Shown here: in pieces, positions 30,631 to 47,534 of the stretch
Layout: each line of letters opens with the position of its first letter
Position numbering within the stretch: position 1 is the first letter of the stretch
Source of the DNA: Microcoleus sp.
GTDB lineage: Bacteria > Cyanobacteriota > Cyanobacteriia > Cyanobacteriales > Microcoleaceae
Assembly: GCA_042408215.1 (NCBI GenBank)
Contig: JAYFMW010000007.1
Location: 192,001-256,000, forward strand
Direction: 5' to 3'
Length of the DNA stretch: 64,000 nucleotides
The notes under the pieces: model-generated
What the model was told of the DNA's origin: nothing
The model's database searches: none
What the model saw: only the letters and a program-made list of their open reading frames with translations
Program-made: the position numbers and the translations under genes

Positions 30631-31170
30631 TTATTTCAAGTCCAGCAAACCGCTAGTTTTAAGCTTGGGATTAAACCGAATTTCCTCGGTAACACCGCGA
30701 GCTTTTAACTGTGATAAAATTTCATTTTCCACTCGGCGCGCTACATTTTTCAACAACTTATCTTTAGCAATTTCATCTGCCACAATGCCTTCATAACTTG
30801 CCACTTCTGCCGCAGTCATCACAGTTTTAGTATCTATCGGATCGTTCCAGAAAGCAGCATCGGCATCATTCCCAGTCGGTAGGGAACCGTTTTCAGCAAT
30901 CCAACTCGATCGGATGCTGTCTAGAATAGTGCGGTTTGGTCGATCGATAGTTTGGACTTTCAGCCAGTAGCACTGTAGAGGTTGGCGCACGAGATGCTGT
31001 TTGAGGCTGAGATAAATATCACGAGAATAGCCGACAAATTGTAGCACTTTATCCTTGTCGAAAATCCCATAAACGCCGATTTTTCCCTGTACGAACTCCG
31101 GCAATTTTCCCTCAGAGTCAATGTAGGGAATCAATTCTAAGCTGGCGAGGGATTGAATGTCTGATGTCAT
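30631..31170 (-). CDS. GIY-YIG nuclease family protein (cyanobacterial/plant type)
   Basis: GVYGIFDKDKVLQFVGYSRDIYLSLKQH motif. Confidence 0.8.
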   Translation of the reverse strand: MTSDIQSLASLELIPYIDSEGKLPEFVQGKIGVYGIFDKDKVLQFVGYSRDIYLSLKQHLVRQPLQCYWLKVQTIDRPNRTILDSIRSSWIAENGSLPTGNDADAAFWNDPIDTKTVMTAAEVASYEGIVADEIAKDKLLKNVARRVENEILSQLKARGVTEEIRFNPKLKTSGLLDLK

Positions 31171-31221
31171 TTTTTCTGAATTGTCGATCGTTAATTATTC
31201 CAGCCGTTGACCTGAATTTAC

Positions 31222-31548
31222 CTAACTCTTAAAAACACGATAAATGGCACAGAGTCTGCTGGGCTTAAACACCTTCGCTTGGAACATAAAATTAGGCGGC
31301 ACATTCACGATCGCAAAATCACTCTTACCATGATACTGCTCAAATTGCGCAGGCATTCCCTTCGGCGTCTCGCTGCTGTAAGGTACTGGCTGAAAAAGTA
31401 ACTCTGTAAACTCAAGGCGCGAGCACTGCAATTGTAATGCTACTTGCTGGAGAAAGCTTTCAGCAGTTAATAAACTCAACAGTACAGCTTTAGCCTCTGA
31501 TTCGAGGACAAAACTGCCATCATAGCTTTCGATAATCTTGAGACCCAT
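31222..31548 (-). CDS. Hypothetical protein
   Basis: 108-aa ORF with ATG start, co-oriented with the GIY-YIG gene; no motif recognised. Confidence 0.7.
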   Translation of the reverse strand: MGLKIIESYDGSFVLESEAKAVLLSLLTAESFLQQVALQLQCSRLEFTELLFQPVPYSSETPKGMPAQFEQYHGKSDFAIVNVPPNFMFQAKVFKPSRLCAIYRVFKS

Positions 31549-31876
31549 TTTCTGTATACCTGACGACTGATCTATCCTGAATTTTACCTTCTTGCGGCAC
31601 GATCTGAAAGGTCGATCGATTTTAGATTGTAGATTTTCGATTGGAGAATTGGAGAATTGAACCCACGGAGGGATCCGGAGACCCTGGACTCAATTGCTTG
31701 ATTGTCAAAAATTGTTCTGATTTCTTTCCCGATCGCTTTTATAGAAAGAGGTCGCCCGCCCCAAAACTCAGCTTTTTAAGGCACGGGATGTAGGCTCCAC
31801 GGCGATTTTAATCGCCGTCCTTGTACTTGCATTAGTTGCACTTCCCACCAATTATGCTATCATACAGGCCTAACTG

Positions 31877-32977
31877 GTGAGTCGGGCCACGATCGTATAC
31901 GAATTCAAAGTTAAAGGGAAAGAACGACAATACCAAGCGATTGATGAGGCTATTCGTACTTCTGGATTCATCCAAAATAAGTGCTTGCGCTACTGGATGG
32001 ATCGCCCAGGTGTGAGTAAATACGACCTTAACAAATATTGTGCGGTATTGGCTAAAGAATTTCCTTTTGCTGACGCACTTAATTCAATGGCTCGACAGTC
32101 GGCTGCTGAGCGTTCTTGGAGTGCTATTTCTCGATTTTACGACAATTGCCGGAAAAAGGTTAAAGGTAAAAATGGCTTTCCTAAGTTGAAAAAATTCTCT
32201 CGTTTTGTGGAGTATAAAACTTCAGTATAGGAACTATCTAAAACTCTAAAAAATATCATTTTTGCCGATAAAAAAGCTATGAAAAAAATGAATCTAAAGG
32301 GAACATACGACCTTAAATACTATGACATAAAGCAAATTAAAAGAGTGCGATTTGTACGTCGTTCCGACGGCTATTATGATCGATTTGCGGTAGATGTAAA
32401 GGTGAGAATTGAAACTGAACCTACCCATCAAATAGTTGGTTTGGATCTGGGGTTAAAGTATTTTATTGCTGATGACAAAGGCAATGTTGAACCACCCCCT
32501 CAGTTCTCTCCAAAATCTGAACGGCAATTAAATCGCGATCGCCGCCAGAAATCGATCAAATATAGCAGCGATCGCAAGAAAGCAAGACAACCGCAGTCTA
32601 ACAACTACCAGAAAGCTATAAATAGATAGGCCCGAAAACATTTAAGAGTAAGTAGGCAACGAAAAGAATATTGCAAGAGATTAGCATATTCCGTCATTCA
32701 ATCTAAGGATTTGATAGCCTAGGAAGATTTAAATGTTAAAGGACTGGTAAGAAATCGACATCTAGCTAAATCTATTAGTGATGCTGGCTGGTCAACTTTT
32801 CGCGGTTGCTTAGAATATTTTGGGCAAAAATATGGGAAGGTGACGGTAGCAGTACCGCCGCACTATAGGAGTCAAAATTGTTCTAACTGTGGTAATAAAG
32901 TGCAAAAATCTCTTTCTGTTAGAACCCATATTTGTCCGCATTGTGGGTTTCCAGCAGACCGGGACGTAAACGCCAGC
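31877..32977 (+). pseudogene. tnpB: TnpB RNA-guided endonuclease, 5' part, with three in-frame TAG stops
   Basis: One frame with stops at 32228, 32627 and 32720. VGLDLG (RuvC-I), EDL (RuvC-II), CSNC/CPHC zinc finger, DRDVNAS (RuvC-III). Confidence 0.93.
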
Positions 32978-33374
32978 AGTAGCCCGCACCGGCAACGGGT
33001 ATTTCTACAAGCTAACTGTAACAGACCCAGATGGCGACCTGCTGACTTTTAGATTGACCAAAGCACCAACAGGAATGAAGGTTGACAAGGACAGTTTGAT
33101 TGTCTGGACTCCCGGCGCAGGCGATGTGGGGCAGAAACAGGACGTGTCGGTGTCGGCTAGCGACGGCCAGGGGGGAAGCGACACTCAATCCTGGACTGTT
33201 AATGTCTCTAATTCGGCCGTTAACCGACCTCCAAGTATTACTTCGGTACCGGATACCGTTACTAATTTAGAGCGAGTTTATCGCTACCAGCTAACAGCTA
33301 CCGACCCCGAAGGAGACTATTTACTGTGGAGTTTGGATAATGCTCCCAAGGGTATGGTAATCGATGCTAATTAA
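32978..33374 (+). pseudogene. Fragment of the Ig-like repeat region of a large RHS protein
   Basis: YKLTVTDPDGD...APTGM and NRPPSITSVP...YRYQLTATDPEGD...APKGM repeats; no native start; ends abruptly at 33374. Confidence 0.8.
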
Positions 33375-33478
33375 GCGTTGTTGCCGATACTTATGCACCT
33401 AAAGTCAATATTATTGCCAGCAAAAATACAGCTAATCTCGGAGATTCGGTCACATTTACCGTCAATGCTGTCGATAAC

Positions 33479-36400
33479 GTGAAAGTAGAATCTTTGGGTT
33501 TGACTATCAACGGCACTCCTGTAGTTTTGGATGCACAAGGTCAAGCAAATGTCAAGGTAAATAATTTAGGAAATTTCACAGCAGTTGCAACAGCTAAAGA
33601 TGCGGCTGGAAATGTGGGGAATGCGACTCAAGCTGTGGCTGCAATTGATACTAGCGATGTCAACGCGCCAACTATCAACATCAGTTTAGAAGATGATGCA
33701 GAAATTACCGCACCTGTCAATATAGTTGGCACAATTAGTGACAGCAATTTAGCTTACTATACATTGGAAGTTGCCCCGGTTGGTGGCGGGCAAATTCCGG
33801 GCGATGGCGGAGGATTTAAGGAGGTTTATCGGGGAACTGCTGCTGTCAGCAACGGAACGGTTGCGACATTTGACCCGACTGTTTTAGCTAACGGCGCTTA
33901 CGTTCTCAAGTTCACTGCTTTCGACGCTAACGGTAACGGTTCGACTACTGAAAGGACGGTGAATGTTTCGGGTGATTTGAAGTTGGGGAATTTCCGGTTG
34001 TCGTTTACTGATTTATCCGTTCCAGTTGCGGGAATTCCGATTAACGTGACTCGAACTTACGATTCTTTGAATGCGAATAATGGCGATGATTTTGGCTACG
34101 GCTGGCGGATGGAATTCCGGGATACTGATTTGAAGACTTCTTTGAAAGCTGATCCGACTTACGAGGAGTTGGGGATAAATACCGTACCGTTTGACAGCAA
34201 GACTAAGGTGTTTATTACGTTACCTGGTGGTAAGCGGGAAACCTTTACTTTTAAGCCGACTCCGCATCATTTGAATCAGTATTTGGGAGGGGCTGGGCCG
34301 GGTGCTCAGATGTTCAAGCCTGCTTTTGAGTCTCAGAAAGGTTCGACGATGACTTTGACGGTTAAGGATGCGAATTTAGTCAGGAATGAGAACGGGTATT
34401 ACGGGGTGAACGCACAGCCTTTCAATCCTGAAAATCCTGCCTTTGGTGGGGTGTACGTGTTGACTACTAAGGAGGGATTGGTTTACGAGATTGATGCGAA
34501 GTCTGGGGATTTGTTGACTGCTACTGATGCGAATGGGAATAAGCTGACTTTCTCGGATGCGGGGATTAAGAGTAGTTCGGGTAAGTCGGTGACTTTTGAG
34601 AGGGATGTTGATGGGAGGATTGTCGGTGTTGTTGACCCGGATGGCAAGAAAGTCAAGTACGAATACGACGCGAAAGGGGATTTGGTTGCTGTTAAGGATA
34701 GGGAGAATAATGCAACTCGGTTTGAGTACGAAGATGAGGACAGACCGCACTTTTTAACTGAGGTAATTGACCCGTTGGGACGCAGTGGAGTCAAGACTGA
34801 CTACGACGATTCTGGTCGCCTCAAGCAGATGGTTGATGCGAATGGGTCGGCGGTGGAATTGGTTTATGACCCTAATAATTCCCTTCAGAAAGTTAAGGAT
34901 GTTTTTGGGAAGGAGACGACTTATGTTTACGACAGTCGGGGGAATGTTTTAACTGAGATTGACCCGTTAGGGAAGAGGGTTGATCGGACTTTTGATGGGG
35001 ATAATAATGTTTGGACTGAGACTGTAATTACCACTGAATTAAATGCTGCTGGCAATCCGGTTGAAATGCGGCAAACAACTGAATGGACTTACGACAGTCG
35101 GGGGAATAAGTTAACTGAAAAAGACCCGTTAGGTAATGTTTCGCGGTGGACTTATAACAGTCGGGGACAGGTTTTGACTGAAACCGACGCCCTGGGGAAT
35201 ACTGCGACTTACACCTATTCTCCGAGTGGGAATTTGCTGTCAACAAAAGATGCTGCGGGGAAAATTACCCAGCACAGTTATGATGCAAGGGGTCTGCGCC
35301 GTTCCACAACAGATGCTAACAACAAAATTACCCGCTATGAATACGACAATTCCGGCAATTTGATTCGCCAAACAGATGCAGAAGGCAACGACACTACTTA
35401 CACCTACAACAATTTAGGCAAGCGGTTGACCGAAACGAGAAAAGTAACTACTCCTTACGGGTTAGAAGAGTTAGTTACCGAGTGGAAATACGATGCAGAA
35501 GGACGGGTAGAATCCGTCATTGACGCCGAGGGTTATCTCACTAAATACGAATACGATGCTAACGACAACCGCACGGCTGTTGTTGATGGCTCGCGACGCC
35601 GGACTGAGTACGTTTACAATGAAAAGGGACAGTTGGAAGATATTATTTATCCTGAGAAAAATCCCAACGATCCTACCAAAAACCTGAAACTTAACAACAC
35701 TTACGACGCAGCAGGTCGCTTGGTAACTAGAACTGATGAATTGGGTCGCGTTACTCAATACAAATATGATGACGCGGGTCGCTTAACCGAAACAATTTAC
35801 CCCGATAAAACTCCTGCAAATGAGTTAGATAACCCCAGAACCAAAGTCGAGTATTACAAAAATGGCAATGTCAAAGCTGAAATTGACGAGCGGGGAAATC
35901 GCACCGAATACCGCTACAATGCTAACAACGAACTTGTCGAAATTATCTACCCAGACGGCACGCCCGATACTCTTGCATACAATCCGAAAACTGTTTACCA
36001 ATACGACGCAGCAGGCCGCCGGATTAGCGAAACAAATGCTCGCAACCGTACCACTACTTTTGTTTACGATGAATTAGATCGACTCACAGAAACTCGGTTC
36101 CCGGACAATACTAAAACAACCGCAACTTACGATGCTTTGGGACGGCGCGTTAGTTCCACTGACCGCAACGGTAAAGTAACAAAATACGAGTACAATGCAG
36201 CAGGTAAATTGACTGCTGTCGTCCAAAATTTGAATCAACCGGGTGTTGGATTAATTGAACTCAGGACTGAGTACAGTTATGATGAAGCAGGTCGGTTGAC
36301 TGGCGTTAAAGATGCCAATACTCGCGTTACTGAATACGATTACGATTTGGTAGGTCGTCCCTTAGCTACAATTTTACCCGATGAAAAATGGTCAGAAACT

Positions 36401-38446
36401 TATTACGATGGGGCTGGGAATGTTATCGGGTTAACGGATTTTAACGGCAACAGCGTTTTTTACGATTACGATGCGGGTGCTGCCCCTTCTGTTGGCAGTC
36501 AAAATCCTGTCAGGTACGCTTATACTCCAACTGGAAAGATTGCCAGCATTGTTGACAGTCGGGGTACGACCAGTTACAAGTATGATGAGCGAGATAGATT
36601 GATTTCTCGGACTGACCCGGATGGGCCTTACACGGCAAACAATGTGACCATTGAGTACGGGTATGATGCTGCGGGAAATATCACTTCGGTTGCTGTTCCG
36701 AACGGTACTACTGGTTACACTTACGATGAAAGAAATCGTTTGAAAACGGTGACTGACCCGGATGGTGGGGTGACGGCTTATTCCTACGATGCGGTTGGCA
36801 ATTTGTCAAGAACTGAATTCCCGAATGACGTGATTGAAACTCGCACTTACGATGATTTGAATCAGCTTAAGTTGCTGGAGTACAGCCGCCAGGGAACGGT
36901 GTTTTCTAAGTTCGATTACACCTTGGATGCTGCGGGGAACCGCCGCGCTGTTACTGAGTTGAACGGGCGCAAGGTTGAGTACGAGTATGACGATTTATAT
37001 CGGGTGACGAAGGAGACGATTACGGATGCTGTTGCGGGAAATCGGACGGTTAGTTACACCTATGATAAGGTTGGCAATCGCCTGAGTCGAAATGATTCTG
37101 TTGAGGGAGTTACGACTTATGTTTATGATAGCAACGACCGCCTGAAAACGGAGGAGTTGAAGCAGAATAATGCGGTCGTGCGTTCTTACGAGTACGGCTA
37201 CGATGATAATGGAAATACTCGGACTCGGACTCAGAAGGATGCTGCTGGTAATGTTGTTGAAACCGTAACTTACAGTTGGAATAAAGAGAATCGTTTGGTT
37301 GGAGTGCAAAGCTCTAATGGGGATACAGTTGCTTACAGTTACGATGCGGATGGAGTTCGGGTCAGCAAGACTGTGAATGGGGTAACGACTGAGTATTTGG
37401 TGGATAGCAATCGGGATTATGCTCAGGTTTTGGAGGAGCGTATTAATGACTCTTTGGGTGTGAGTTATGTTTACGGACGGGATTTGATTTCGCAGGAACG
37501 GGGGGTTGCTGATTCGTACTATTTGGTTGATGGTTTGGGCAGTACGAGGGGTTTGATGAATGGTGTTGGTGGGGTGACTGATGTTTACAATTATGATGCT
37601 TTTGGGAATTTAATTGGGAGGACGGGGAGTGCGGTTAATGGTTATTTGTATGCGGGGGAACAGTATGACTCGAATTTGGGGGGTTATTATTTAAGGCAGC
37701 GGTATTACGATCAGTATCGGGGTCGGTTTGCGTCTCAAGATCCGTTTGAGGGGTGGATGAGCGAGCCGATGAGCTTGCACAATTATTTGTATGCTCATGG
37801 GAATCCGGTTAATGCGATCGATCCTAGCGGTCTTTTTGCTACTACGGCTGACTACCTCAATCTTATATTCGCTGCTGGCGCTCTTGCTGCGATCGGCCAG
37901 GTCACGCTGAATACTGTTTTTACGTTCAGGGAAGGAACGCCGAACGAATTTCCGCCCGCACCGCCTCCTTTCCCGCTACCGCGCCCGTCGGAACCCGAAA
38001 TTTTGATTAACAAGCCGCCGGAGGATGGGTTTCCTCCGTCTCCGGAGCCTTTCCCGGTGCCGCAGCCTGAGAAACCGGAGCCTTTGATTACGCGGGTGCC
38101 GCTGTTGGGGCTTAAGGAGTATTTGGATAATTATGTTTTCTCTGCCATCTGTAACTTCTCTCCTAGAAAATTACAACATGAGTATAAACACGCGCCAGAT
38201 TTTGGAATTACTGGGAACTGGAATAGTACCAATCGCGCTCTCTTCATCAAAGCCTTGGAGGATCATATCCAAAATGCTCCCGTTCAAATACCAGGAACTT
38301 ATCGCGGTACGATACCAGTTACTCACTACTACGATCCAAACACTGAAAATTGGGTAGCTGTCGATCTAAACAACGATTTTGTCGCTGCTTGGAAACTATC
38401 AAACGCACAACGGGATAATTTATTAAATGGAGGAAATGTACAATGA
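33479..38446 (+). CDS. RHS/YD-repeat protein, N-terminally truncated, with colicin D-like tRNase tip
   Basis: RTYDS...FGYGW, many YD repeats, core YLYAGEQYD...NPVNAIDPSG. Tip KHAPDFGI...GTYRG...FVAAWKL resembles the colicin D ribonuclease domain. The frame is open from about 33371 without a start until GTG 33479. Confidence 0.9.
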   Translation: MKVESLGLTINGTPVVLDAQGQANVKVNNLGNFTAVATAKDAAGNVGNATQAVAAIDTSDVNAPTINISLEDDAEITAPVNIVGTISDSNLAYYTLEVAPVGGGQIPGDGGGFKEVYRGTAAVSNGTVATFDPTVLANGAYVLKFTAFDANGNGSTTERTVNVSGDLKLGNFRLSFTDLSVPVAGIPINVTRTYDSLNANNGDDFGYGWRMEFRDTDLKTSLKADPTYEELGINTVPFDSKTKVFITLPGGKRETFTFKPTPHHLNQYLGGAGPGAQMFKPAFESQKGSTMTLTVKDANLVRNENGYYGVNAQPFNPENPAFGGVYVLTTKEGLVYEIDAKSGDLLTATDANGNKLTFSDAGIKSSSGKSVTFERDVDGRIVGVVDPDGKKVKYEYDAKGDLVAVKDRENNATRFEYEDEDRPHFLTEVIDPLGRSGVKTDYDDSGRLKQMVDANGSAVELVYDPNNSLQKVKDVFGKETTYVYDSRGNVLTEIDPLGKRVDRTFDGDNNVWTETVITTELNAAGNPVEMRQTTEWTYDSRGNKLTEKDPLGNVSRWTYNSRGQVLTETDALGNTATYTYSPSGNLLSTKDAAGKITQHSYDARGLRRSTTDANNKITRYEYDNSGNLIRQTDAEGNDTTYTYNNLGKRLTETRKVTTPYGLEELVTEWKYDAEGRVESVIDAEGYLTKYEYDANDNRTAVVDGSRRRTEYVYNEKGQLEDIIYPEKNPNDPTKNLKLNNTYDAAGRLVTRTDELGRVTQYKYDDAGRLTETIYPDKTPANELDNPRTKVEYYKNGNVKAEIDERGNRTEYRYNANNELVEIIYPDGTPDTLAYNPKTVYQYDAAGRRISETNARNRTTTFVYDELDRLTETRFPDNTKTTATYDALGRRVSSTDRNGKVTKYEYNAAGKLTAVVQNLNQPGVGLIELRTEYSYDEAGRLTGVKDANTRVTEYDYDLVGRPLATILPDEKWSETYYDGAGNVIGLTDFNGNSVFYDYDAGAAPSVGSQNPVRYAYTPTGKIASIVDSRGTTSYKYDERDRLISRTDPDGPYTANNVTIEYGYDAAGNITSVAVPNGTTGYTYDERNRLKTVTDPDGGVTAYSYDAVGNLSRTEFPNDVIETRTYDDLNQLKLLEYSRQGTVFSKFDYTLDAAGNRRAVTELNGRKVEYEYDDLYRVTKETITDAVAGNRTVSYTYDKVGNRLSRNDSVEGVTTYVYDSNDRLKTEELKQNNAVVRSYEYGYDDNGNTRTRTQKDAAGNVVETVTYSWNKENRLVGVQSSNGDTVAYSYDADGVRVSKTVNGVTTEYLVDSNRDYAQVLEERINDSLGVSYVYGRDLISQERGVADSYYLVDGLGSTRGLMNGVGGVTDVYNYDAFGNLIGRTGSAVNGYLYAGEQYDSNLGGYYLRQRYYDQYRGRFASQDPFEGWMSEPMSLHNYLYAHGNPVNAIDPSGLFATTADYLNLIFAAGALAAIGQVTLNTVFTFREGTPNEFPPAPPPFPLPRPSEPEILINKPPEDGFPPSPEPFPVPQPEKPEPLITRVPLLGLKEYLDNYVFSAICNFSPRKLQHEYKHAPDFGITGNWNSTNRALFIKALEDHIQNAPVQIPGTYRGTIPVTHYYDPNTENWVAVDLNNDFVAAWKLSNAQRDNLLNGGNVQ
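33490..34575 (+). repeat. First copy of a 1086-bp imperfect direct repeat (second copy 44415-45500)
   Basis: Both ends align at the same 10,925-bp offset; the translations are nearly identical with scattered substitutions. Confidence 0.92.
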
Positions 38447-38850
38447 AGTTTGACATTACTAAATTTGAGTCGAAATTTGAAACTATCGTTCAACAATTTT
38501 TGGGAGGTGAAATGTCAGCAGAACAGTTTTCTTCTGATTTTACGACTCTCTGGATGAGTTTTAGGGATGAGCAATATAAAATCAAAGATACTTGGGATAA
38601 ACGCTACGATCTTGAACTTCTTGAGCATTTACAAAAAGGTGAACTAACAAGCGAAGAATTTACACAAAAATCTAGAGAACTTATGGGAACTACCGAGATT
38701 TTTGAGTTCATTAATATGGTAGACGCTATTCACAGTGCTTGCCATGTATTCAATCCTTTCCCTGGGCCTATATTTGAAGGGGAAATCACTGAAGAACAAT
38801 TAAGAGCAGAAGTTCAAGCACTTATTACCAACTATCAGAGTAAAAAATAA
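38443..38850 (+). CDS. Cognate immunity protein, colicin D immunity (ImmD)-like
   Basis: ATGA overlap with the toxin; acidic; FLGGEMSAEQF and FNP...EITEEQLRAEV resemble ImmD. Confidence 0.75.
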   Translation: MKFDITKFESKFETIVQQFLGGEMSAEQFSSDFTTLWMSFRDEQYKIKDTWDKRYDLELLEHLQKGELTSEEFTQKSRELMGTTEIFEFINMVDAIHSACHVFNPFPGPIFEGEITEEQLRAEVQALITNYQSKK

Positions 38851-38965
38851 TAGTTATAACGATTGATTTCCACTCGGGCGGCCGCCTGCGGGCTACTATT
38901 GACCAGACGAGCACGCAACTCACTACAATTACGATGATGCGGATGGAATACGGGTCAGCAAGACT

Positions 38966-40189
38966 GTGAATGGGGTAACGACTGAGTATTTGGTGGATAG
39001 CAATCGGGATTATGCTCAGGTTTTGGAGGAGCGTATTAATGACTCTTTGGGTGTGAGTTATGTTTACGGACGGGATTTGATTTCGCAGGAACGGGGGGAT
39101 GCTGATTCGTTCTATTTGGTTGATGGTTTGGGCAGTACGAGGGGTTTGACGAATGCGTCGGGGGGGGTTACGGATGTTTACAATTACGATGCTTTTGGGA
39201 ATTTAATCGGGCGGACGGGAAGCACAGTTAATGGTTATTTGTATGCGGGGGAACAGTATGACTCGAATTTGGGGGGTTATTATTTAAGGAAGCGCTTTTA
39301 TGATGAGTATCGGGGTCGGTTTACTGCTCAAGACCCGTTTGAGGGTTTGATGAGCGATCCGATGAGTTTGCACAATTATTTGTATGCTCATGGGAATCCG
39401 GTTAATGCGATCGATCCTAGTGGTCTTTCTACTCTTTCGATGGATAGCCTACTCAGTCTTATCGCAACTGCTGGCGCTCTGGCTGCGATCGCCCAGCCCG
39501 CGATGAATATTGTGTTCGGGTTCGTTAAGGAGGGAACGCCGAACGAATTCCCGCCCGCACCGCCTCCTTTTCCAGTGCCTCGCCCGTCGGAACCGGAGAT
39601 TTTGATTAACAAGCCGCCTGCGGATGGGTTTCCTCCATCTCCTGAACCTTTCCCGGTGCCGAATCCTGAGAAACCGGATCCTTTGATTACGCGGGTTCCT
39701 CTGTTGGGGCTTAAGGAGTATTTGGATAATTATGTTTTTGGCTCTGAAGTTACTCAAGAGCATCTTAATCAAATTAGACAGATTGTCAATAAATACAAAA
39801 ATTTTGAGTGTGTAGAATGCGCCAATGAAATTAAAACGTACCTGAAAAGCCAAAAAATTAAGGGAAGGCATATTAGACTTGATACAGGAAATGTCAATGA
39901 GAACATCTATGATGACAATGTTGTTCTAGAACATGGAGAAGCAATTTCACTTAATGGTAAGCACGAAGCTATTTTAATCGAAATCGACTTGGAATTAGCG
40001 ATGGCTAACGGTGTTATTGGCATAGAGAATGCAACAGTTAATCAAGCTGGCAAAGTTAAAGTCGTTTTTGATAATCATCGCCCTAATGGAATGATTCAAG
40101 AATCATGGTTAAATGGACTACAGTTTCGTGGTAAACTATTTGGGAACCCACCCCAACAGTTTTCTCAAAAGGGAAGCAGAAATTTTTAG
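38966..40189 (+). CDS. Orphan RHS core/C-terminal module with papain-fold toxin (Tox-PL-2-like) tip
   Basis: Duplicates about 37341-38139, then diverges into ECVECA...NGKHEAI...VFDN (Cys-His-Asp). It may be a silent cassette. Confidence 0.82.
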   Translation: MNGVTTEYLVDSNRDYAQVLEERINDSLGVSYVYGRDLISQERGDADSFYLVDGLGSTRGLTNASGGVTDVYNYDAFGNLIGRTGSTVNGYLYAGEQYDSNLGGYYLRKRFYDEYRGRFTAQDPFEGLMSDPMSLHNYLYAHGNPVNAIDPSGLSTLSMDSLLSLIATAGALAAIAQPAMNIVFGFVKEGTPNEFPPAPPPFPVPRPSEPEILINKPPADGFPPSPEPFPVPNPEKPDPLITRVPLLGLKEYLDNYVFGSEVTQEHLNQIRQIVNKYKNFECVECANEIKTYLKSQKIKGRHIRLDTGNVNENIYDDNVVLEHGEAISLNGKHEAILIEIDLELAMANGVIGIENATVNQAGKVKVVFDNHRPNGMIQESWLNGLQFRGKLFGNPPQQFSQKGSRNF

Positions 40190-40212
40190 TCGGAAAGAAA
40201 AAGGAGAATAAA

Positions 40213-40512
40213 ATGGAATTTCTTTACGATTTTTTAAAAGAGATTAAAAAGAGACCGGGAATGTTTTTGCGAAGAAAATCCATTTTATATTTGCATTCAT
40301 TTTTGACAGGCTATGACATGGCTCGCTTCCACATGGGATTGTCAAAAACTAAACAAGAACAGAAATTTAATGATTTTGCAGAGTGGATACCAATTAAGTT
40401 TAATGACAATTCTACTCGCTCTTGGGCTGACATAATTCTTTTAAATTCAGAAGATGAAAGCCAAGCTTTCGATCGTTTTTTTGAACTACTTGAAGAATTC
40501 AAAAATTTGTAA
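40213..40512 (+). CDS. Putative immunity protein for the papain-fold toxin
   Basis: Small ORF right after the tip with AAGGAG RBS; IKKRPGMFL...SWADII...FFELLEEF. Confidence 0.7.
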   Translation: MEFLYDFLKEIKKRPGMFLRRKSILYLHSFLTGYDMARFHMGLSKTKQEQKFNDFAEWIPIKFNDNSTRSWADIILLNSEDESQAFDRFFELLEEFKNL

Positions 40513-40539
40513 TCAAAATAACAATTAGAATATATCATA

Positions 40540-40632
40540 CTAAACCAGAAGCTAATAATCGTTTCGCAAGCTTTTAAGGATTGCGTTGAAAATAATGGTT
40601 TAGAGGGTCGGAAATTCAAACAAGTTACTTGA
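40540..40632 (+). pseudogene. 3' remnant of an Imm11/DUF1629-like immunity gene
   Basis: Reads KLIIVSQAFKDCVENNGLEGRKFKQVT-stop, resembling that family's C-terminus; no start. Confidence 0.45.
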
Positions 40633-40664
40633 GTCGTGCCTGATTTCCACTCGGGCTACCACTA

Positions 40665-41306
40665 ATGGATGGTGAAACAATGCAGCTAAACTTTTTTGAT
40701 TTTATTTTTTTAGAAAAAGAACTGGAATTCCTACCTTCTTTTCATAGACTCGCCTTTGCGGCTTCTATTTGCGAGAGGTTACTTCCCAACTACAACGCCT
40801 TCTCGAAAATCGAAAATTTTGGTAATTTTCGTGTCCTGAGACAAACACTGGATGAAATTTGGCAATTTTTACAAAACAATTCAGTAGATAGAACCAGAGT
40901 TCCTCAATTAATATATGATTGCGACAGCGATCTAATAATTCCCCACGCAGATGACTTTGGTGCTGGATATGCTTTAGAAGCGCAGGAAGCAGCTTTTGCA
41001 TTGTGCAATACTCTCGAAGCTTGTCTTAATCCAACACCGGAAGCTATTCTAAAAGTAGCTGATCGCGCTAAAAATACGATTGATGCATTTATCAATTTCG
41101 ATGAAACTTTCAGCCTACTGCAATCGCAAGATATGACAAAATATAAGCAGGCAATTGCTAGCCACCCCCTTGCAAGTCGAGAAATGGCAAAACAAACAGA
41201 GGATTTACAACGATTAAAAGGGACAGATATTTTAGATGAAGATTTTTTGGAGTGGCTTCGGACCTCTTCAAATAATAATGGAGTAAGTTTGATAGGCTTG
41301 TCCTAA
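40665..41306 (+). CDS. DUF416/YjaG-like protein, copy 1
   Basis: RLAFAASICERLLPNYNAF motif. Confidence 0.8.
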   Translation: MDGETMQLNFFDFIFLEKELEFLPSFHRLAFAASICERLLPNYNAFSKIENFGNFRVLRQTLDEIWQFLQNNSVDRTRVPQLIYDCDSDLIIPHADDFGAGYALEAQEAAFALCNTLEACLNPTPEAILKVADRAKNTIDAFINFDETFSLLQSQDMTKYKQAIASHPLASREMAKQTEDLQRLKGTDILDEDFLEWLRTSSNNNGVSLIGLS

Positions 41307-41332
41307 GTTATATTAAACTCTATTTAACAGCG

Positions 41333-41983
41333 ATGTCTCAGTCTGTAGTAATGACTCCACAATTTTTTAACTTGGATTCTTTGAAACAAGAAATCAAACA
41401 ACTGTCCCATCTTCACCAAGTAGCTTTTGCCGCTTCTATTTGTGAAAGAATGCTGCCAATGTACGAGAAATTTTCTCGAAGGGCGAATTGGGGGCAGCCC
41501 TCTTTACTAAGAGAAGTGCTGGATGAAGTTTGGCTGATTCTACAAGAGAAATCAATCGCTCCGTCAAAAATTCGTAAATTAATGGAAAAAATTGACGGTG
41601 AAGGTATTTGCCCGGACTCGGATTCAGACGATTTTTGTGATGCTTATTACCTTTTTGAAGCTCAATTCACTATTTTGGCACTCTACTCTACTCTGACAAC
41701 CCTACTAACATCAGAATCTAAACATATTATTGAAGTTGTCGAAAATGCTAGATTTGACACTATTGAGGGATTTATTAGTCAAAGAGACAAGCTATACGAA
41801 GTAAAAAACTATCAAGATATGTTGGAACCAATTGCCAACGATCCGCTAGCAAAGCAGGAACTTGCCAAGGAAATGGAAGACTTACAAAATCTAAAAAAGG
41901 TCGATAAATTGTCAGTCGAATTTTTAGAAAAGCTTCGCACCTCCTCTTGCAATAAAGGTAAAAGCTTAATTGACTTGTTATGA
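41333..41983 (+). CDS. DUF416/YjaG-like protein, copy 2
   Basis: QVAFAASICERMLPMYEKF; paralogous to copy 1 along its length. Confidence 0.8.
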   Translation: MSQSVVMTPQFFNLDSLKQEIKQLSHLHQVAFAASICERMLPMYEKFSRRANWGQPSLLREVLDEVWLILQEKSIAPSKIRKLMEKIDGEGICPDSDSDDFCDAYYLFEAQFTILALYSTLTTLLTSESKHIIEVVENARFDTIEGFISQRDKLYEVKNYQDMLEPIANDPLAKQELAKEMEDLQNLKKVDKLSVEFLEKLRTSSCNKGKSLIDLL

Positions 41984-42027
41984 GACAGACAACGATCCTA
42001 TCGAATCATTTGGGCAAACATTGGATA

Positions 42028-42156
42028 GATGAAAAAAATGCTCTTGACAATTTTTTTGAATTGTACGAACTGTTTAAACGAGACTTCCTAGAGTGGCTCC
42101 GCACCTTTTTTGACGACGGTGGTAGAATTTTAATCGATATCTATCTTGAGCTATAG
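42028..42156 (+). pseudogene. Chimeric remnant of two immunity-like genes
   Basis: Reads DEKNALDNFFELYELFKR (like the end of 40213..40512) then DFLEWLRTFFDDGGRILIDI (like the DUF416 ends). Confidence 0.65.
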
Positions 42157-42880
42157 GATGATAAGCGCTATGACCAACATACTTTCCAATTCTGAGAAAG
42201 TGGAATATCTCGAAACAGCAAAAATTGATTGGTTTCACAACCAACTCAAAGCCTGGGCATCCCAAAACTTGCGCGACTTTCCCTGGCGGCGCACGAGCGA
42301 CCCTTACGCCATTTTTATCGCTGAATTCTTGCTGCAAAAAACGGTAGCCTCAACAGCAGCTCCCGTTTATGAAGCCTTTATCTCCCGCTATCCTACCTTA
42401 GCAGTTCTGGCCGCAACGCCTATAGAAAAAGTTGCTGTCGCTTTACAACCTTTAGGTTTGCACTTTCGAGCCGAAAGACTCTGCCAGTCAATGCAAATCA
42501 TCCTCGAACAACACAACGGCAAAATTCCCCGCACGGAATCTGAATTGCTTCAACTTCCTGGAGTTGGCTTGTATACAGCACGTTCTATTTGCGCCCATGC
42601 TTTCTCCCAACCAAAAGCAGTCCTCGATACCAACGTCGCCCGCATTTTAGAACGGTTTTTCGGCTTGCAGGGCAATCGGGTAAAATCACGGTGCAAGCTA
42701 CTTTGGATGACAGCAGAATTGGTTGCCCCCAATACAGAAGTGGGAAAGTGGAACCTAACACTGATTGACTTTGGCGCAGCCATATGCACGGCTAAAAACC
42801 CTCGCTGCGCGGATTGTCCGCTGAATGATCGCTGCAACTACTACATAAAATCTACTCATCATAAATTAAGATCTCCATGA
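42146..42880 (+). CDS. Short HhH-GPD mismatch DNA glycosylase (MutY/MIG-like) with 4Fe-4S motif
   Basis: RDFPWRRTSDPY...EFLLQKT, LPGVGLYTA, LDTNVAR, CTAKNPRCADCPLNDRC; no C-terminal NUDIX-like domain. True start may be ATG 42158 or 42170. Confidence 0.88.
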   Translation: MSYRMISAMTNILSNSEKVEYLETAKIDWFHNQLKAWASQNLRDFPWRRTSDPYAIFIAEFLLQKTVASTAAPVYEAFISRYPTLAVLAATPIEKVAVALQPLGLHFRAERLCQSMQIILEQHNGKIPRTESELLQLPGVGLYTARSICAHAFSQPKAVLDTNVARILERFFGLQGNRVKSRCKLLWMTAELVAPNTEVGKWNLTLIDFGAAICTAKNPRCADCPLNDRCNYYIKSTHHKLRSP

Positions 42881-43180
42881 AACCAATCCCGCAATTTGAA
42901 GAACTCGCGATCGCCCTTATTGCCTCCAACCTCAACCCCACTCACTTTACCCCTGATTTCCTCTTCGGCAGCGGTATTGTCCCAGAACATTGGCAGCTAG
43001 CTCAACCCCCCCAGGGCGACCCCCACATGACAACAATTACCTTTACCAACGGCGCGATTGCATTTTTCACAACTAGACAGCCACTTTCTCAGAAACCCTA
43101 GAATCGAAATCTCTCAAACAGATACAAATACCGACAATCGTTTGCAAATGTGCCGATAGTTTGCTCAATGCCAACTATCA
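42877..43180 (+). pseudogene. Frameshifted, truncated hypothetical gene
   Basis: 74-aa ORF (NLNPT...FLFGSGIVPEHWQLAQPP); protein-like sequence continues in another frame (FSETLESK...NANYQ). Confidence 0.5.
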
Positions 43181-43276
43181 AAACAATCGGGCGATCGACA
43201 CCTTCGCGCATTCCCAACACAAATTTGTCCCTCGATAATTTTGCCCCAACAACTTATCAATTCCTGGGTCAATAAC

Positions 43277-43804
43277 TTAGGCACTCTCTCCAGCAATAAG
43301 AGGCGATTTAATTTTTGACTTTCGCCACTTTTCTGCACTTTGTTTGACAGCTTCTATTTCCTCAAAATCTACTCTAACAACAGCGATTTCAAATTCTATA
43401 CCTAAAACCGTACAAACTTCGAGGATTTCTACAAAACTGGCACATTGATAATCTGTATCTTCATACTGCTTGACTCGCTGTTCTTCAATTCCCAGTATCT
43501 GAGCCAATTCTTTTTGATTGATTTGGGCTGCTATTCTCGCTTTTATTAAAGCATCCGGTAGCTTATTTATGCTTTCAACTTTAAGTGAAATATGCTGAGT
43601 GCGATCGCACTTCAGCAATCTTTCATAATCAGCTATTTCTGCTCTAAAAACATCCAAGTGACTTTGGATCGATTCGCGCATCGCCGACCACCAAGGATCG
43701 TTATTTTTTACCTCTTCATCTTGAGCGTCATAATTGGCTAGCGTATGTTCACATCTTTTCGCTAACTCTTGGGTATACTCGTATTGTCTTTCATTTCTAA
43801 TCAT
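43277..43804 (-). CDS. XRE-family HTH protein, putative antitoxin
   Basis: MIRNERQY start; LIKARIAAQINQKELAQILGIEEQRVKQYEDTDY HTH; ATGA-coupled to the upstream gene's natural stop. Confidence 0.85.
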   Translation of the reverse strand: MIRNERQYEYTQELAKRCEHTLANYDAQDEEVKNNDPWWSAMRESIQSHLDVFRAEIADYERLLKCDRTQHISLKVESINKLPDALIKARIAAQINQKELAQILGIEEQRVKQYEDTDYQCASFVEILEVCTVLGIEFEIAVVRVDFEEIEAVKQSAEKWRKSKIKSPLIAGESA

Positions 43805-44247
43805 GGCCACCACCTTATTAAATCTATAGCAATAATTCCTTTAGGATTTCGTTCTCTGTCTCGCTGAAATAGTTCGTAGGAAGTGATATCATAACTGCCT
43901 ACTGGCTAGTCGGATGGAAAGATTTCACCGCGATAAAGAGCTTTTTGTGCTGCCCTGTCTGCATAATTTCTCAGTCGGGGGGCATAAGTTTTCAGATAAT
44001 TCATATCAACCTCTTCTCTATCCCAACAAGCATCAAAATCTTGAGGAGATAGTTTGCTAGTAATAAAACTGCCATTGATATAAATTGTTCTGCATCCTGC
44101 TGCTTTTAGTTGCTCCATTGCCATTTGCAATCCATCTATCATGCGACTGCGAAGTGGTGTTGTTCCAAATCGCTCTTTGAACTCTTCCCATTCTGTCCAA
44201 TACACTCCTGGTGGTAGGTTGCCGTTCTCATCAAATTCTGGAATCAT
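43801..44247 (-). pseudogene. DUF6932-like nucleotidyltransferase-fold protein (putative toxin) with premature TAG at 43906-43908
   Basis: MIPEFDENGNLPPG...INGSFITSK..PQDFD. After the TAG the frame continues ELFQRDRERNPKGIIAIDL to a TGA overlapping the HTH start. Confidence 0.8.
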
Positions 44248-44414
44248 GCGATCGCACCCTTAAATTTTAACACAATTTCCTTGTCTGTTTATAATGACTG
44301 TTGATTTACTCAGCATACCTCGATTGTTAACAAAAAGCGATCGCTCAACTTAGAACCAAAACCTTTAGATTGCTAACTTGGAACAATCCGACTTCGGATA
44401 AGCATCAAATAGTC

Positions 44415-45500
44415 ATCTTTGGGCTTAACTATCAACGGCACTCCGATTGCTATAGACGCACAAGGAAGAGCAACTGTCAAGTTAAATAACTTAACTCCCA
44501 TCACAGCAATTGCAACAGCTAAAGATGCGGCCGGAAATGTGGGGAATGCGACTCAAGTTGTCAGGGCGATTGATACTAGCGATGTCAACGCGCCAACTAT
44601 CAACATCAGTTTAGAAGATGATGCAGAAATCACTGCACCTGTCAACATCACCGGCACGATTAGTGACAGCAATTTAGCTTACTATACATTAGAAGTTGCT
44701 CCGGTTGGTGGCGGGAAAATTCCGGGCGATGGCGGAGGATTTAAGGAGGTTTATCGGGGAACTGCTGCTGTCAGCAACGGAACGATTGCGACATTTGACC
44801 CGACTGTTTTGGCTAACGGCGCTTACGTTCTCAAGTTCACTGCTTTTGACGCTAACGGTAACGGTTCGACTGCTGAAAGGACGGTGAATGTTGCGGGAGA
44901 TTTGAAGTTGGGTAATTTCCGGTTGTCGTTTACTGATTTATCCGTTCCAGTAGCGGGAATTCCGATTAATGTAACTCGAACTTACGATTCTTTGAATGCC
45001 AATGCTAGCGATGATTTTGGCTACGGCTGGCGGATGGAATTCCGGGATACTGATTTGAAGACTTCGCTAAAACCCGATCCGACTTATGAGGAGTTGGGCA
45101 TCAATACCGTAGCATTTGATAGCAAGACTAAGGTATTCATTACCTTACCTGGTGGTAAGCGGGAAACCTTTACTTTTAAGCCGACTTCGCATCATCTGAA
45201 TCAGTATTTAGGAGGGGCTGGGCCGGGGGCTGCAATGTACAAGCCGGCTTTTGAGTCGCATTCGGGTTCGACGATGACTCTGACTGTTAAGGATGCGAAT
45301 TTGATACGGAATGAGAACGGGTATTATGGGGTAAACGGACAGCCCTTCAATCCTGAAAATCCTGCCTTTGGTGGCATATATGTGTTGACTACCAAGGAAG
45401 GATTGGTTTACGAGATTGATGCGAAGTCTGGGGATTTGCTGACGGCTACTGATGCTAACGGAAATAAGCTATCTTTTAGCGATGCGGGGATTAAGAGTAG
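44415..45500 (+). pseudogene. Second, truncated copy of the RHS pre-core region
   Basis: Paralogous to 33490-34575; cut at AGTAG where the tnpB 3' part resumes. Confidence 0.88.
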
Positions 45501-45653
45501 ATCAACATTCTGAAACGGGGACTAGCTACGGTGGGGCACACCGGAACTTACGCTTGGGGAGATTTACCCTCTTGGGCTGTTGGTGTAAACTTGCGGTCTA
45601 ATGGCGAGTCGTTGAACCCCGAATCCCCTGATTTATAATCGGGGGAGTGTCAA
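45501..45653 (+). mobile_element. tnpB: tnpB 3' end and IS right end (probable omega/reRNA scaffold region)
   Basis: Translates INILKRGLATVGHTGTYAWGDLPSWAVGVNLRSNGESLNPESPDL-stop, then hairpin and GTGTCAA. Confidence 0.88.
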
Positions 45654-45693
45654 CATAGGTCTATCGAAATATACCAACTACAACTAAAAGGTT

Positions 45694-46491
45694 ATGCAGA
45701 AGATCGACGACGGATCATTAAGGGAGATGAGAAGTTCTCAAAACCTGCCAGAATGGCTAGAATTGGCAGAATACGCCTCTATTGCTGGTTCAGCTATTGG
45801 CACGATTGCCGCAGGATTGTCAGGGCACATTGTCTACGCTGCCACTCCCTTGACCCTAGCACTATCCCTGAATCTCGTCAATCGCCAGCGTTTCGACCAA
45901 AAAATGCAACAAAAGTCAAATTCTGCGATCGCGGGCGTAGAATTGGCAGTAAAGTCCCTCCAACAGCAAGTTCAGACACTACCTGGGGAACCTACGGAAC
46001 TCTACACCGCCGTCTCCGACTTGCAGCAAAAACTCAGTAGCTTGGAATCCCACACGATCGCCGACGTACAGGCTGCGGTAAAATCCCTTGAGCAACAAGT
46101 GCAGGAATTTCCGGGAGAGTCTCAGCAACTCTACCCCATGCTTTCCCAATTGCAGCAAAAACTGCACAGCTTGGAAAATAGCGCCCTCAGAGAGCAAGAT
46201 TGGGAAAATGTGAATGTTCGGTTTTTATTGATGGGCGAAAAATTAACGGAAGTTAAAAATATTACAGCAGAGTTGCAGGAGCGATCGTCCGAGGTAGACT
46301 TCAGTGAAATCCAAGATACCGTGAAGCAATTGCAAGTTTTACTCGCTCGACCCACAATAGACGTAGCGACACTGCAAACCGAGATGCATCAATTGCAGGA
46401 GCAAGTTTCCGAATTGGAGCGCCTCAATCAAGAAATTGTCAAGCCTTATTTGCAGCGCCTGATTCGTGCCATGAAACACCTCAGTCAGTAG
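45694..46491 (+). CDS. Hypothetical protein with N-terminal hydrophobic hairpin and coiled coil
   Basis: Hydrophobic WLELAEYASIAGSAIG...LSLNLVNR; internal 43-aa duplication (AVKSLQQQVQ/AVKSLEQQVQ). Start may be 45727. Confidence 0.75.
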   Translation: MQKIDDGSLREMRSSQNLPEWLELAEYASIAGSAIGTIAAGLSGHIVYAATPLTLALSLNLVNRQRFDQKMQQKSNSAIAGVELAVKSLQQQVQTLPGEPTELYTAVSDLQQKLSSLESHTIADVQAAVKSLEQQVQEFPGESQQLYPMLSQLQQKLHSLENSALREQDWENVNVRFLLMGEKLTEVKNITAELQERSSEVDFSEIQDTVKQLQVLLARPTIDVATLQTEMHQLQEQVSELERLNQEIVKPYLQRLIRAMKHLSQ

Positions 46492-46682
46492 TTATTGGTT
46501 ATTGGTCAGTAGTCATTAGTCAGTAGTCATTAGTCAGTAGTCGTAGGGTGCGTCGCCACTTTGAATCCCTCAAAAAAATAGACAATCGATGAGCGACGCA
46601 CCAAACCAAGAGTCCGACGTCCGACGTCCGACGTCATTTCGATCGAGTGCTGTATCGGCGATCGAGCTAGAAGCTCGCACTG

Positions 46683-47534
46683 CTAATTATGAAACTTTTG
46701 CCAAGCCTGCCAAAAAACATAAATCGATAAAATTGCCAAGAGCGATCGAAAAGCCAAACTCACAACTCGATCGGACAATCTGGGCAAAAACCGCGTGCTA
46801 ACTTGCACACCCAACAAACCCCCACCGCCCAGAATCAGCCCCACAACCCACAATACATTCCCCCGCGCAGCGTGGCCAGCGGTCGCCGAAATTGCCGTAA
46901 TCACGATCGCGCCCAAGCTCGTTTGAATTGCTGTTTTAATACTTTCTCCTAACAGCAAAATTTGCAGCGGCACCATAATCACGCCTCCACCCACACCAAA
47001 CAAACCCGCTAATAAACCAGCCGCACTGCCGGTAGCAATTCTCGCAAAAATGGGATTCACTAAAACATTTGAATCCTTGGGTAATGGGTCATTGGTAATG
47101 GGTAATGGGTAATTAGTAATGGGTAATTGAGGATTTTCCCGTCCCTCTTCCACTAGATTCTTAGCAGTCAAGCGTTTGCGAACTTCTACCAAATAAATAT
47201 TCAGCCACAGCAACAGCCCAAAAGTAACTAACAACAAATAAGGCGGAAATATCCCCGCCAAATAAACACCAACTTGTGCTGTGATTACGGCTGGAAATCC
47301 GATGCCTGCGACTTGACTCAAACTGAGATAACCCATGCGCCAATTCTGGAAGCTACCAGAAATCGCTGTAATGACGATCGACAAACTGCTGGTAGCAACC
47401 GCTTGCACAGGCGCGTAATTGAGAGCCACCAACAGAGGTACGAGTACCGTCCCGCCACCAATACCCAAAAATCCAGCTAGAATTCCGGCAAAAAGTCCGG
47501 CCGCAGCCAGAATCAATAATTCGTTGATAGTCAT
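46683..47534 (-). CDS. TauE/SafE (TSUP) family membrane transporter
   Basis: Two GFLGIGGG/GLFGVGGG..VP repeats, AVATSS, multiple TM helices. Confidence 0.92.
   Translation of the reverse strand: MTINELLILAAAGLFAGILAGFLGIGGGTVLVPLLVALNYAPVQAVATSSLSIVITAISGSFQNWRMGYLSLSQVAGIGFPAVITAQVGVYLAGIFPPYLLLVTFGLLLWLNIYLVEVRKRLTAKNLVEEGRENPQLPITNYPLPITNDPLPKDSNVLVNPIFARIATGSAAGLLAGLFGVGGGVIMVPLQILLLGESIKTAIQTSLGAIVITAISATAGHAARGNVLWVVGLILGGGGLLGVQVSTRFLPRLSDRVVSLAFRSLLAILSIYVFWQAWQKFHN

Follow-up and report, generated by a model that had tools for sequence, protein, structure and literature searches.

A fragment of an RHS toxin/immunity array nested in the dead tnpB gene of an IS200/IS605 element in Microcoleus sp.

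The window analysed here is a stretch of 64,000 nucleotides from Microcoleus sp. (contig JAYFMW010000007.1; G000:C7:192001-256000), which carries an IS200/IS605 element without tnpA whose tnpB gene is split by DNA from an array of RHS toxin and immunity genes. The element lies directly 3' of the hexamer TTTTAT and spans 31743-45653, i.e., 13,911 bp including an insert of 12,523 bp (32978-45500) that begins and ends with AGTAG (Table 1). A first-pass annotation, made from the letters alone, had seen in this arrangement either a cargo-carrying IS605 derivative moving toxin/immunity arrays or a one-off precise insertion.

The first half of tnpB starts with GTG at 31877 and proceeds to ...GAC CGG GAC GTA AAC GCC AGC at 32977; the second half takes up with ATC AAC ATT CTG AAA CGG at 45501 and closes with TAA at 45636-45638. 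The intact reference for this gene is the tnpB of G028 (locus L052), from another family of the same order, which is 75% identical in nucleotides and encodes 410-418 amino acids (aa). On this reference the two halves abut exactly: position 2130 corresponds to 32950 of the window, a further 27 bases lead to 2157, and 45501 corresponds to 2158, the point at which the G028 protein reads HCGFVEDRDINAS-INILKLGLSTAGHAGTYA (...DRDINAS-INILKLG...; hyphens mark boundaries here and below). The split at 32977/45501 and the rejoining without loss of codons, both proposed in the first-pass annotation, hold to the single base, since none is lost or gained relative to the intact gene, and the insert with its terminal AGTAGs was confirmed at every coordinate. 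When stops are read as X, the 5' part matches OrfB_IS605 (PF01385, E 2.9e-15) and the zinc ribbon Cas12f1-like_TNB (PF07282, E 1e-17) in Pfam. Its three in-frame TAG stops (32228-30, 32627-29 and 32720-22) stand where G028 has W, Y and Y; the first replaced a W codon (TGG in G028) and the other two replaced TAT codons, and the reading frame is unshifted throughout the 1.1 kb. Among 185,579 species genomes, the best relatives of this TnpB are 77% identical in amino acids or less, and most belong to records titled Anabaena, Nostoc, Calothrix or Scytonema. Within the genus, the tnpB part matches only a 388-nt stretch in G018, at 75% identity. The own genome, G000, yields 38 near-full-length high-scoring segment pairs to one TnpB query (174 in total); the nearest other tnpB DNA there reaches 66-69% identity, and none is split at this codon. 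As to a guide (omega/re) RNA, which would be encoded at the tnpB 3' end and right end, no Rfam family reached the gathering score in 31000-47000, and a 34-nt stretch (45527-45560) is conserved among the TnpB 3' ends of the genome.

The outer boundaries were placed by a base-by-base comparison with three relatives, G014, G017 and G008, in which the site is empty, as the first-pass annotation had predicted for related genomes. The window reads GATCGCTTTTAT-AGAAAGAGG...(13,911 bp)...GAGTGTCAA-CATAGGTCTATC, and the empty sites read GCTTTTAT-CAT(A/G)..CTATC, with nothing between the two parts. A target-site duplication is absent (TTTTAT-element-CATAGG in the window versus TTTTAT-CATAGG in the three empty sites), and a boundary 3' of TTTTAT without target duplication is the signature of IS200/IS605 insertion. 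Both ends proposed earlier are in place: the left end, expected after TTAT, starts at 31743 directly after GATCGCTTTTAT (TTTTAT), and the right end, expected to carry a hairpin and TCAA, finishes at 45653 as ...GAGTGTCAA, where homology to the tnpB locus of G028 ends as well. DNA folding places subterminal hairpins at 31799-31818 (8-bp stem) and 45625-45645, with whole-segment z-scores of only -1.96 and -1.75. There is no tnpA within the element, in which merely 134 nt separate the left end from the tnpB start; the element is therefore non-autonomous, a state that the IS200/IS605 family accommodates. It resembles the tnpB-only (IS1341-type) group of this family, for which IS608 and ISDra2 serve as paradigms, in its TnpB with OrfB_IS605 and zinc-ribbon domains, in the hairpins near both ends and the right end closing in TCAA, and in its position 3' of a short T-rich motif, with no duplicated target. 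It is unlike these systems in that it lacks tnpA and exists as a single genomic copy, that three nonsense codons and an interruption of 12.5 kb disrupt its tnpB, and that the closest relatives of its TnpB share no more than 77% of amino acids. The present element is a dead new member of the tnpB-only group.

The order of events is given by a second allele of the same site. Scanned with the 29-nt terminus of the right end, the metagenome contigs gave a single match, L143 (2,515 bp), in which the element that the first-pass annotation suggested seeking intact at this locus was found with an uninterrupted tnpB. Its boundary is the same as in the window (TTTTAT-AGAAAGAGG), and its tnpB passes straight through the insertion point as GCCAGC-ATCAAC, reading GTAAACGCCAGCATCAACATTCTG. 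Relative to the window, L143 is 96.7% identical in the left flank (31448-31873) and 95.8% in the tnpB 5' part, and then continues directly with 45501-46247 at 98.8%. It shares the first TAG, in the W codon; stops 2 and 3 are private to the window and correspond to TAT (Y) in L143. The common site and the shared first TAG imply that the element was already resident and dead in the common ancestor, before the RHS fragment, and the fragment entered later, only in the lineage of the window. The reverse course, i.e., derivation of the L143 allele from the composite by loss between the AGTAG repeats, was rejected, since one AGTAG would remain and L143 has none. The tnpB 5' parts of the two alleles differ at 46 of 1101 bases, with 8 synonymous and 36 non-synonymous codons, which indicates that no purifying selection has acted on tnpB since the alleles split; the 3' parts differ at 1 of 135 bases. 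Divergence from L143 is uneven along the locus (left flank 3.3%, tnpB 5' part 4.2%, tnpB 3' part 0.7%, right flank 1.2%), and a recombination boundary may lie at or near the insertion point. L143 also has a private insertion of 239 bp (L143 429-667) between the left end and the tnpB start, which contains a long GC-rich palindrome and GGTTGAC/AGTTAAC heptamer repeats, has 188 partial blast matches in the genome, and resembles a miniature repeat element.

The two AGTAGs, together with the bases on their inner sides, belong to native RHS sequence. At the left breakpoint, the RHS paralogues on contig C30 of the same genome read CCCCCGCAC-AGTAG-CCCGCA, and at the right breakpoint, the main RHS gene of the insert, here called R, and four paralogues read GGGAT(T/A)AAG-AGTAG-T(T/A)CG; the two breakpoints represent gene positions ~2.5 kb apart in full-length paralogues. 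Since both AGTAGs are native to the donor, they are not a target duplication, and uninterrupted tnpB (G028, L143) contains no AGTAG. As the junctions are flush, the probable mechanism would be illegitimate joining, in which a double-stranded fragment entered a break, or a template switch in the course of break repair. Three more specific routes were considered and discarded. Against a Y1-transposase misfire on the insert ends, 81-nt segments spanning either junction fold no better than shuffled sequences (z +1.06 and +1.08), and the left breakpoint in the donor is preceded by GCAC, the break in the target by CAGC. Site-specific integration at a common core is not compatible with a target that has no AGTAG and lost no bases, and circular permutation of one RHS gene is not compatible with breakpoints ~2.5 kb apart in the gene and with a second RHS fragment, R', that is a separate, 90%-identical copy. 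As to guide-directed cutting, stretches of 30-35 nt from the AGTAG sites, blasted against the genome, gave matches of at least 20 nt only inside RHS paralogues, and stretches of the same length from both sides of the tnpB break match only themselves beyond stray matches of 14-17 nt.

Its content identifies the insert as a piece of an RHS toxin/immunity array, of a kind typical of the genus. The term polymorphic-toxin cassette, used in the first-pass annotation, is apt for its kind (RHS repeats, Colicin D, Tox-PL-2) and not for its completeness, as the truncated fragment holds no complete toxin locus. R is cut at the tnpB junction, inside its Ig-like domain. The C30 paralogues match from the first base of the insert and stay open for 566-4783 codons further upstream, which means that R is truncated at its 5' end; the N-terminal export/delivery region is absent from R, its upstream codons being present in the paralogues only, and R therefore cannot be a complete delivered toxin. 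Relative to four paralogues, R also has a deletion of ~923 bp at 33370/33371, which is flush, lacks microhomology, and creates a TAA; the style of this junction is the same as that of the tnpB insertion. The 5' part of the orphan module (38924-39738) is 89% identical over 816 bp to R 37334-38139. R' lacks a native 5' region, and its 3' end is truncated by the tnpB junction. Homologous pairs of the helix-turn-helix (HTH) and DUF6932 genes, with 66-85% identity, occur across the genus. An array in G075:C109, in which the DUF416 pair and the endonuclease III-like gene come after an RHS gene, is 94% identical over 40559-43097 (~2.5 kb), and in G041:C4 the end of a DUF6932 gene adjoins an RHS fragment as in the insert, with 88-92% identity over short stretches. 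Full-length native RHS paralogues lie on contigs C30, C19 and C18 of the own genome, in which the RHS family is large (C30, ~1.4-76 kb, with an open frame of 7,069 codons; C19, ~104-120 kb; C18) and which also holds several truncated RHS fragments with differing 5' ends.

Table 1. Parts of the composite locus, with window positions, strand and evidence.
Feature	Position	Strand	Evidence
TTTTAT target motif; also the expected transposon-associated motif (TAM)	31737-31742	+	empty sites in G014/G017/G008; same boundary in L143
Left end of the element, with 8-bp-stem hairpin at 31799-31818	31743-31876	+	empty-site comparison, DNA fold; single copy in genome
tnpB 5' part, 367 codons, three in-frame TAG	31877-32977	+	Pfam; colinear with G028 TnpB
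Insert, 12,523 bp, RHS toxin/immunity array fragment, AGTAG at 32978-32982 and 45496-45500	32978-45500	+	
Remnant Ig-like domain of main RHS gene R	32979-33374	+	He_PIG, Big_9 matches
Long open frame of R, 1655 aa: RHS shell and Colicin D-like C-terminal toxin domain	33479-38446	+	18 RHS_repeat stretches, E 3.5e-136; Colicin_D, E 4.2e-19
Small open reading frame (ORF) overlapping the end of R, candidate immunity gene	38443-38850	+	position; weak Colicin_immun, E 3.3e-4, 21.6 bits against a 22-bit cut-off
Orphan RHS C-terminal module with Tox-PL-2 (papain-fold) toxin domain	38966-40189	+	Tox-PL-2, E 1.6e-24
99-aa ORF after the orphan toxin, candidate immunity gene	40213-40512	+	no family match
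Two tandem DUF416 genes	40665-41306, 41333-41983	+	PF04222, E 1.1e-34 and 1.8e-28
HhH-GPD / endonuclease III-like gene	42146-42880	+	PF00730, PF00633, PF10576
Two-gene module: HTH protein (43277-43813), DUF6932 protein (43906-44247)	43277-44247	-	
R', internal RHS fragment	44415-45500	+	89.8% identical to R 33490-34575
tnpB 3' part, 45 codons and TAA	45501-45638	+	protein identical in L143
Right-end hairpin (45625-45645) and terminal ...GTCAA	45625-45653	+	

Rhs loci with orphan toxin/immunity modules have been described in enterobacteria. The insert is like these loci in that its main RHS gene has a variable toxin at the C-terminus and a small gene behind it, in its 5'-truncated orphan C-terminal module that shares the pre-toxin region of the main gene (89% over 816 bp), and in the presence of further small genes. 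It is unlike them in that R has no N-terminal region (at least 566 codons upstream in the paralogues) and carries the 923-bp internal deletion, and in that the array is situated inside an insertion sequence, away from the native RHS locus.

Public sequencing data bear on the reality of the structure. Nineteen runs, from 9 studies, hold at least half of the sampled words from window 32400-33600, and contigs of four of them (X1, X2, X14 and X16, from four studies) were aligned on 31400-46000; all results on them refer to the contig pieces listed. The left junction is bridged by contigs of 931 nt from X14 (32291-33221, no mismatch), 1,349 nt from X16 (31852-33200) and 1,261 nt from X2 (31961-33200), and the contig of X1 ends at 32953, short of it. 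The boundary between the left flank and the left end of the element is bridged in X1, X14 and X2. Thus, of the two junctions proposed for checking by spanning sequence, the left one is supported from three studies and the right one by none of the pieces. As one run may be the source of the assembly, independent support comes from three studies at most. The composite allele is present in several freshwater samples.

The element has its place between two conserved neighbouring genes. In 21 of 24 genomes of the genus surveyed (G001-G024), the flank genes lie on one contig, 37-2,325 bp apart by alignment ends; the exceptions are G012, with the flanks on two contigs, and G005 and G023 (74% complete), without usable matches. 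The largest gap, in G008 (L039, G008:C403), holds a different element with tnpA and tnpB (~2.3 kb), and the gap of 1,526 bp in G004 (L018, G004:C1) holds another TnpB-like ORF (405 aa). The divergent intergenic region (31572-31742 and 45654-45693 in the window) has thus been struck independently by three different TnpB-family elements, in G000, G008 and G004, and the gap in the same region measures 1,079 bp in G002. The right-neighbour gene (45694-46491) is coiled-coil-like and contains an internal tandem duplication of ~122 bp with 70% identity at 45926-46176.

Taken together, the composite is very probably a one-off nested scar, i.e., a fragment of an RHS array joined flush into an already dead resident element, and not a transposon. 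The breakpoints, the order of the steps and the uniqueness of the composite follow directly from the comparisons. In the proposed course, a non-autonomous, tnpB-only element of ~1.39 kb would have inserted 3' of TTTTAT between two conserved divergent genes, and the missing target duplication would fit the single-strand "peel and paste" route. A W-to-TAG nonsense mutation would then have inactivated tnpB, with neutral drift setting in. Later, a single double-stranded RHS-array fragment of 12,523 bp, cut inside one RHS gene on the left and inside a second RHS fragment on the right, would have entered the dead gene at a break that separated codons ...NAS from INI..., without homology and without any target base lost or duplicated. 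The ends of the element presumably persist only for want of removal. In offering a dead element as a neutral landing place and in keeping its ends, the composite is like other nested insertions in decaying mobile elements; it is unlike them in that the inserted DNA is no transposon but a fragment of a gene array with breakpoints inside genes, and in its flush joining with a donor-derived 5-bp terminal repeat.

Two other readings would make the composite either spurious or mobile. A misassembly that falsely links a tnpB copy to RHS repeats is extremely unlikely: RHS paralogues are many and ~90% alike and the right junction is unbridged, as an assembly artefact would have it, but the left junction is crossed without a mismatch in X14, and also in X16 and X2, from different studies. 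Moreover, only one copy of this tnpB exists in the genome, so that the 3' part must join something other than the 5' part, and no contig joining 32977 to 45501 is reported in the four runs. If the structure is real, it might still be a cargo-carrying IS200/IS605 derivative of 13.9 kb, in which a Y1 TnpA acts in trans on the end hairpins and moves the array as a unit. Both ends are complete (hairpins, TTTTAT target, TCAA terminus), and the search for tnpA that the first-pass annotation recommended, although negative within the element, found at least 13 full-length Y1_Tnp matches elsewhere in genome G000. However, the uninterrupted element at the same site in L143, with its shared nonsense mutation, speaks against arrival as a unit. 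The composite has one copy in the genome, its junction occurs in none of the 78 other genus genomes, and the left-junction 27-mer occurs in no metagenome contig; neither a close tnpB relative nor a second copy of either junction was found in the genome, the 78 genus genomes or the metagenome contigs. The terminal hairpin regions of both ends, including the right terminus, match no other element in the genome, only the internal 34 nt at 45527-45560 being shared, so that none of the resident Y1 transposases is an evident candidate to act on them. Excision is reportedly steeply reduced with increasing element length, as Ton-Hoang et al. are said to have found in 2010. IS608 and ISDra2 excise from the transiently single-stranded lagging-strand template at the fork (PMC5371812), a requirement that also counts against mobility. 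No relevant paper on passenger genes of IS605 elements was found among those listed. Movement of toxin/immunity arrays by this element, as envisaged in the first-pass annotation, is therefore very unlikely, and its copies at other loci did not turn up; the alternative offered there, a one-off precise insertion, agrees with the flush position in tnpB, the pre-insertion allele of L143 and the uniqueness of the composite.

A different matter is whether the insertion was ordered. An RHS-array intermediate of circular or concatemeric form, with ends joined at AGTAG, could have been opened there by a 5-nt staggered cut (e.g., of a TnpB/Cas12-type nuclease), filled in and ligated into a blunt break. 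This would explain a terminal 5-bp direct repeat that is donor-native at both positions, as well as a target without duplication or loss; TnpB cuts in a staggered manner 15-21 bp from the TAM and leaves 5' overhangs (PMC8612924), and the genome has 38 near-full-length TnpB matches. Yet the circle or tandem junction that it predicts, sought as a 24-nt degenerate motif with up to 2 mismatches, occurs in none of the 79 genus genomes (own included), the sequences of the AGTAG sites are found only in RHS paralogues with no resident guide-like copy found, Ku for blunt ligation is missing, the cut must fall exactly on the microhomology, and a coincidence of 0.14% is possible given the many patterns that could have been noticed. 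Such an ordered route is unlikely, and it is slightly more doubtful still that the AGTAG pair was left by an RHS-array segment that had been excised, in circular or concatemeric form, and re-entered the chromosome at an unrelated break without homology or Ku; if true, RHS toxin/immunity arrays could spread to new loci by an undescribed circle-mediated, homology-independent route. The same repeat heads a number of observations that weigh against the one-off joining favoured here. For two random breakpoints in the insert, the chance of a shared terminal 5-mer is 0.0014; random breakage and joining does not predict it, and the 5-bp identity of the insert ends hints at an ordered intermediate. Microhomology with the target amounts to 1 bp at most (a C on the left side) and so offers little to models driven by microhomology, and classical end joining is unavailable, as Ku (PF02735) gave no match in a genome that is 99.98% complete (with Bacillus subtilis, one of the controls, scoring positive; no search was made for LigD). 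No donor copy was found: RHS DNA of the own genome is at most 92% identical, and the best match elsewhere, G075:C109, is 94% identical over part of the insert. The right junction (45500/45501) rests on assembly and topology, the nearest of the listed contig pieces starting at 45512 (X14) and 45516 (X16). Finally, the term scar may understate an insert that is young or still selected. Its stop-free frames comprise 1655 codons in R, 407 in the orphan module and 360 in R', and after simulated random substitution of 2.1% (half of the 4.2% tnpB divergence, the assumed share of the window lineage) they were still open in 1.1%, 36% and 46% of 1,500 runs, respectively. That R is open where ~1% would be expected suggests either that the insertion is much younger than the split from L143, or that selection, or gene conversion with the paralogues on C30, C19 and C18, has kept the frames open.

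The present role of the insert would most likely be that of a store of immunity genes and spare toxin modules, judging by its likeness to the orphan Rhs modules of enterobacteria. It may also provide a silent reservoir from which C-terminal toxin modules of RHS type could recombine with the full-length paralogues on C30, C19 and C18. For annotation, the element, R and R' should all be marked as disrupted. More generally, the locus is a look-alike of a transposon with cargo, and intact ends around a gene array do not prove mobility; here, the sequence of events was resolved by one metagenome allele that predates the insertion. One feature alone is unusual and remains a puzzle: the fragment was joined flush and without Ku, and its terminal 5-bp repeat stems from the donor. 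What the composite means for RHS systems is that fragments of their arrays can relocate by non-homologous joining in a Ku-less cyanobacterium.

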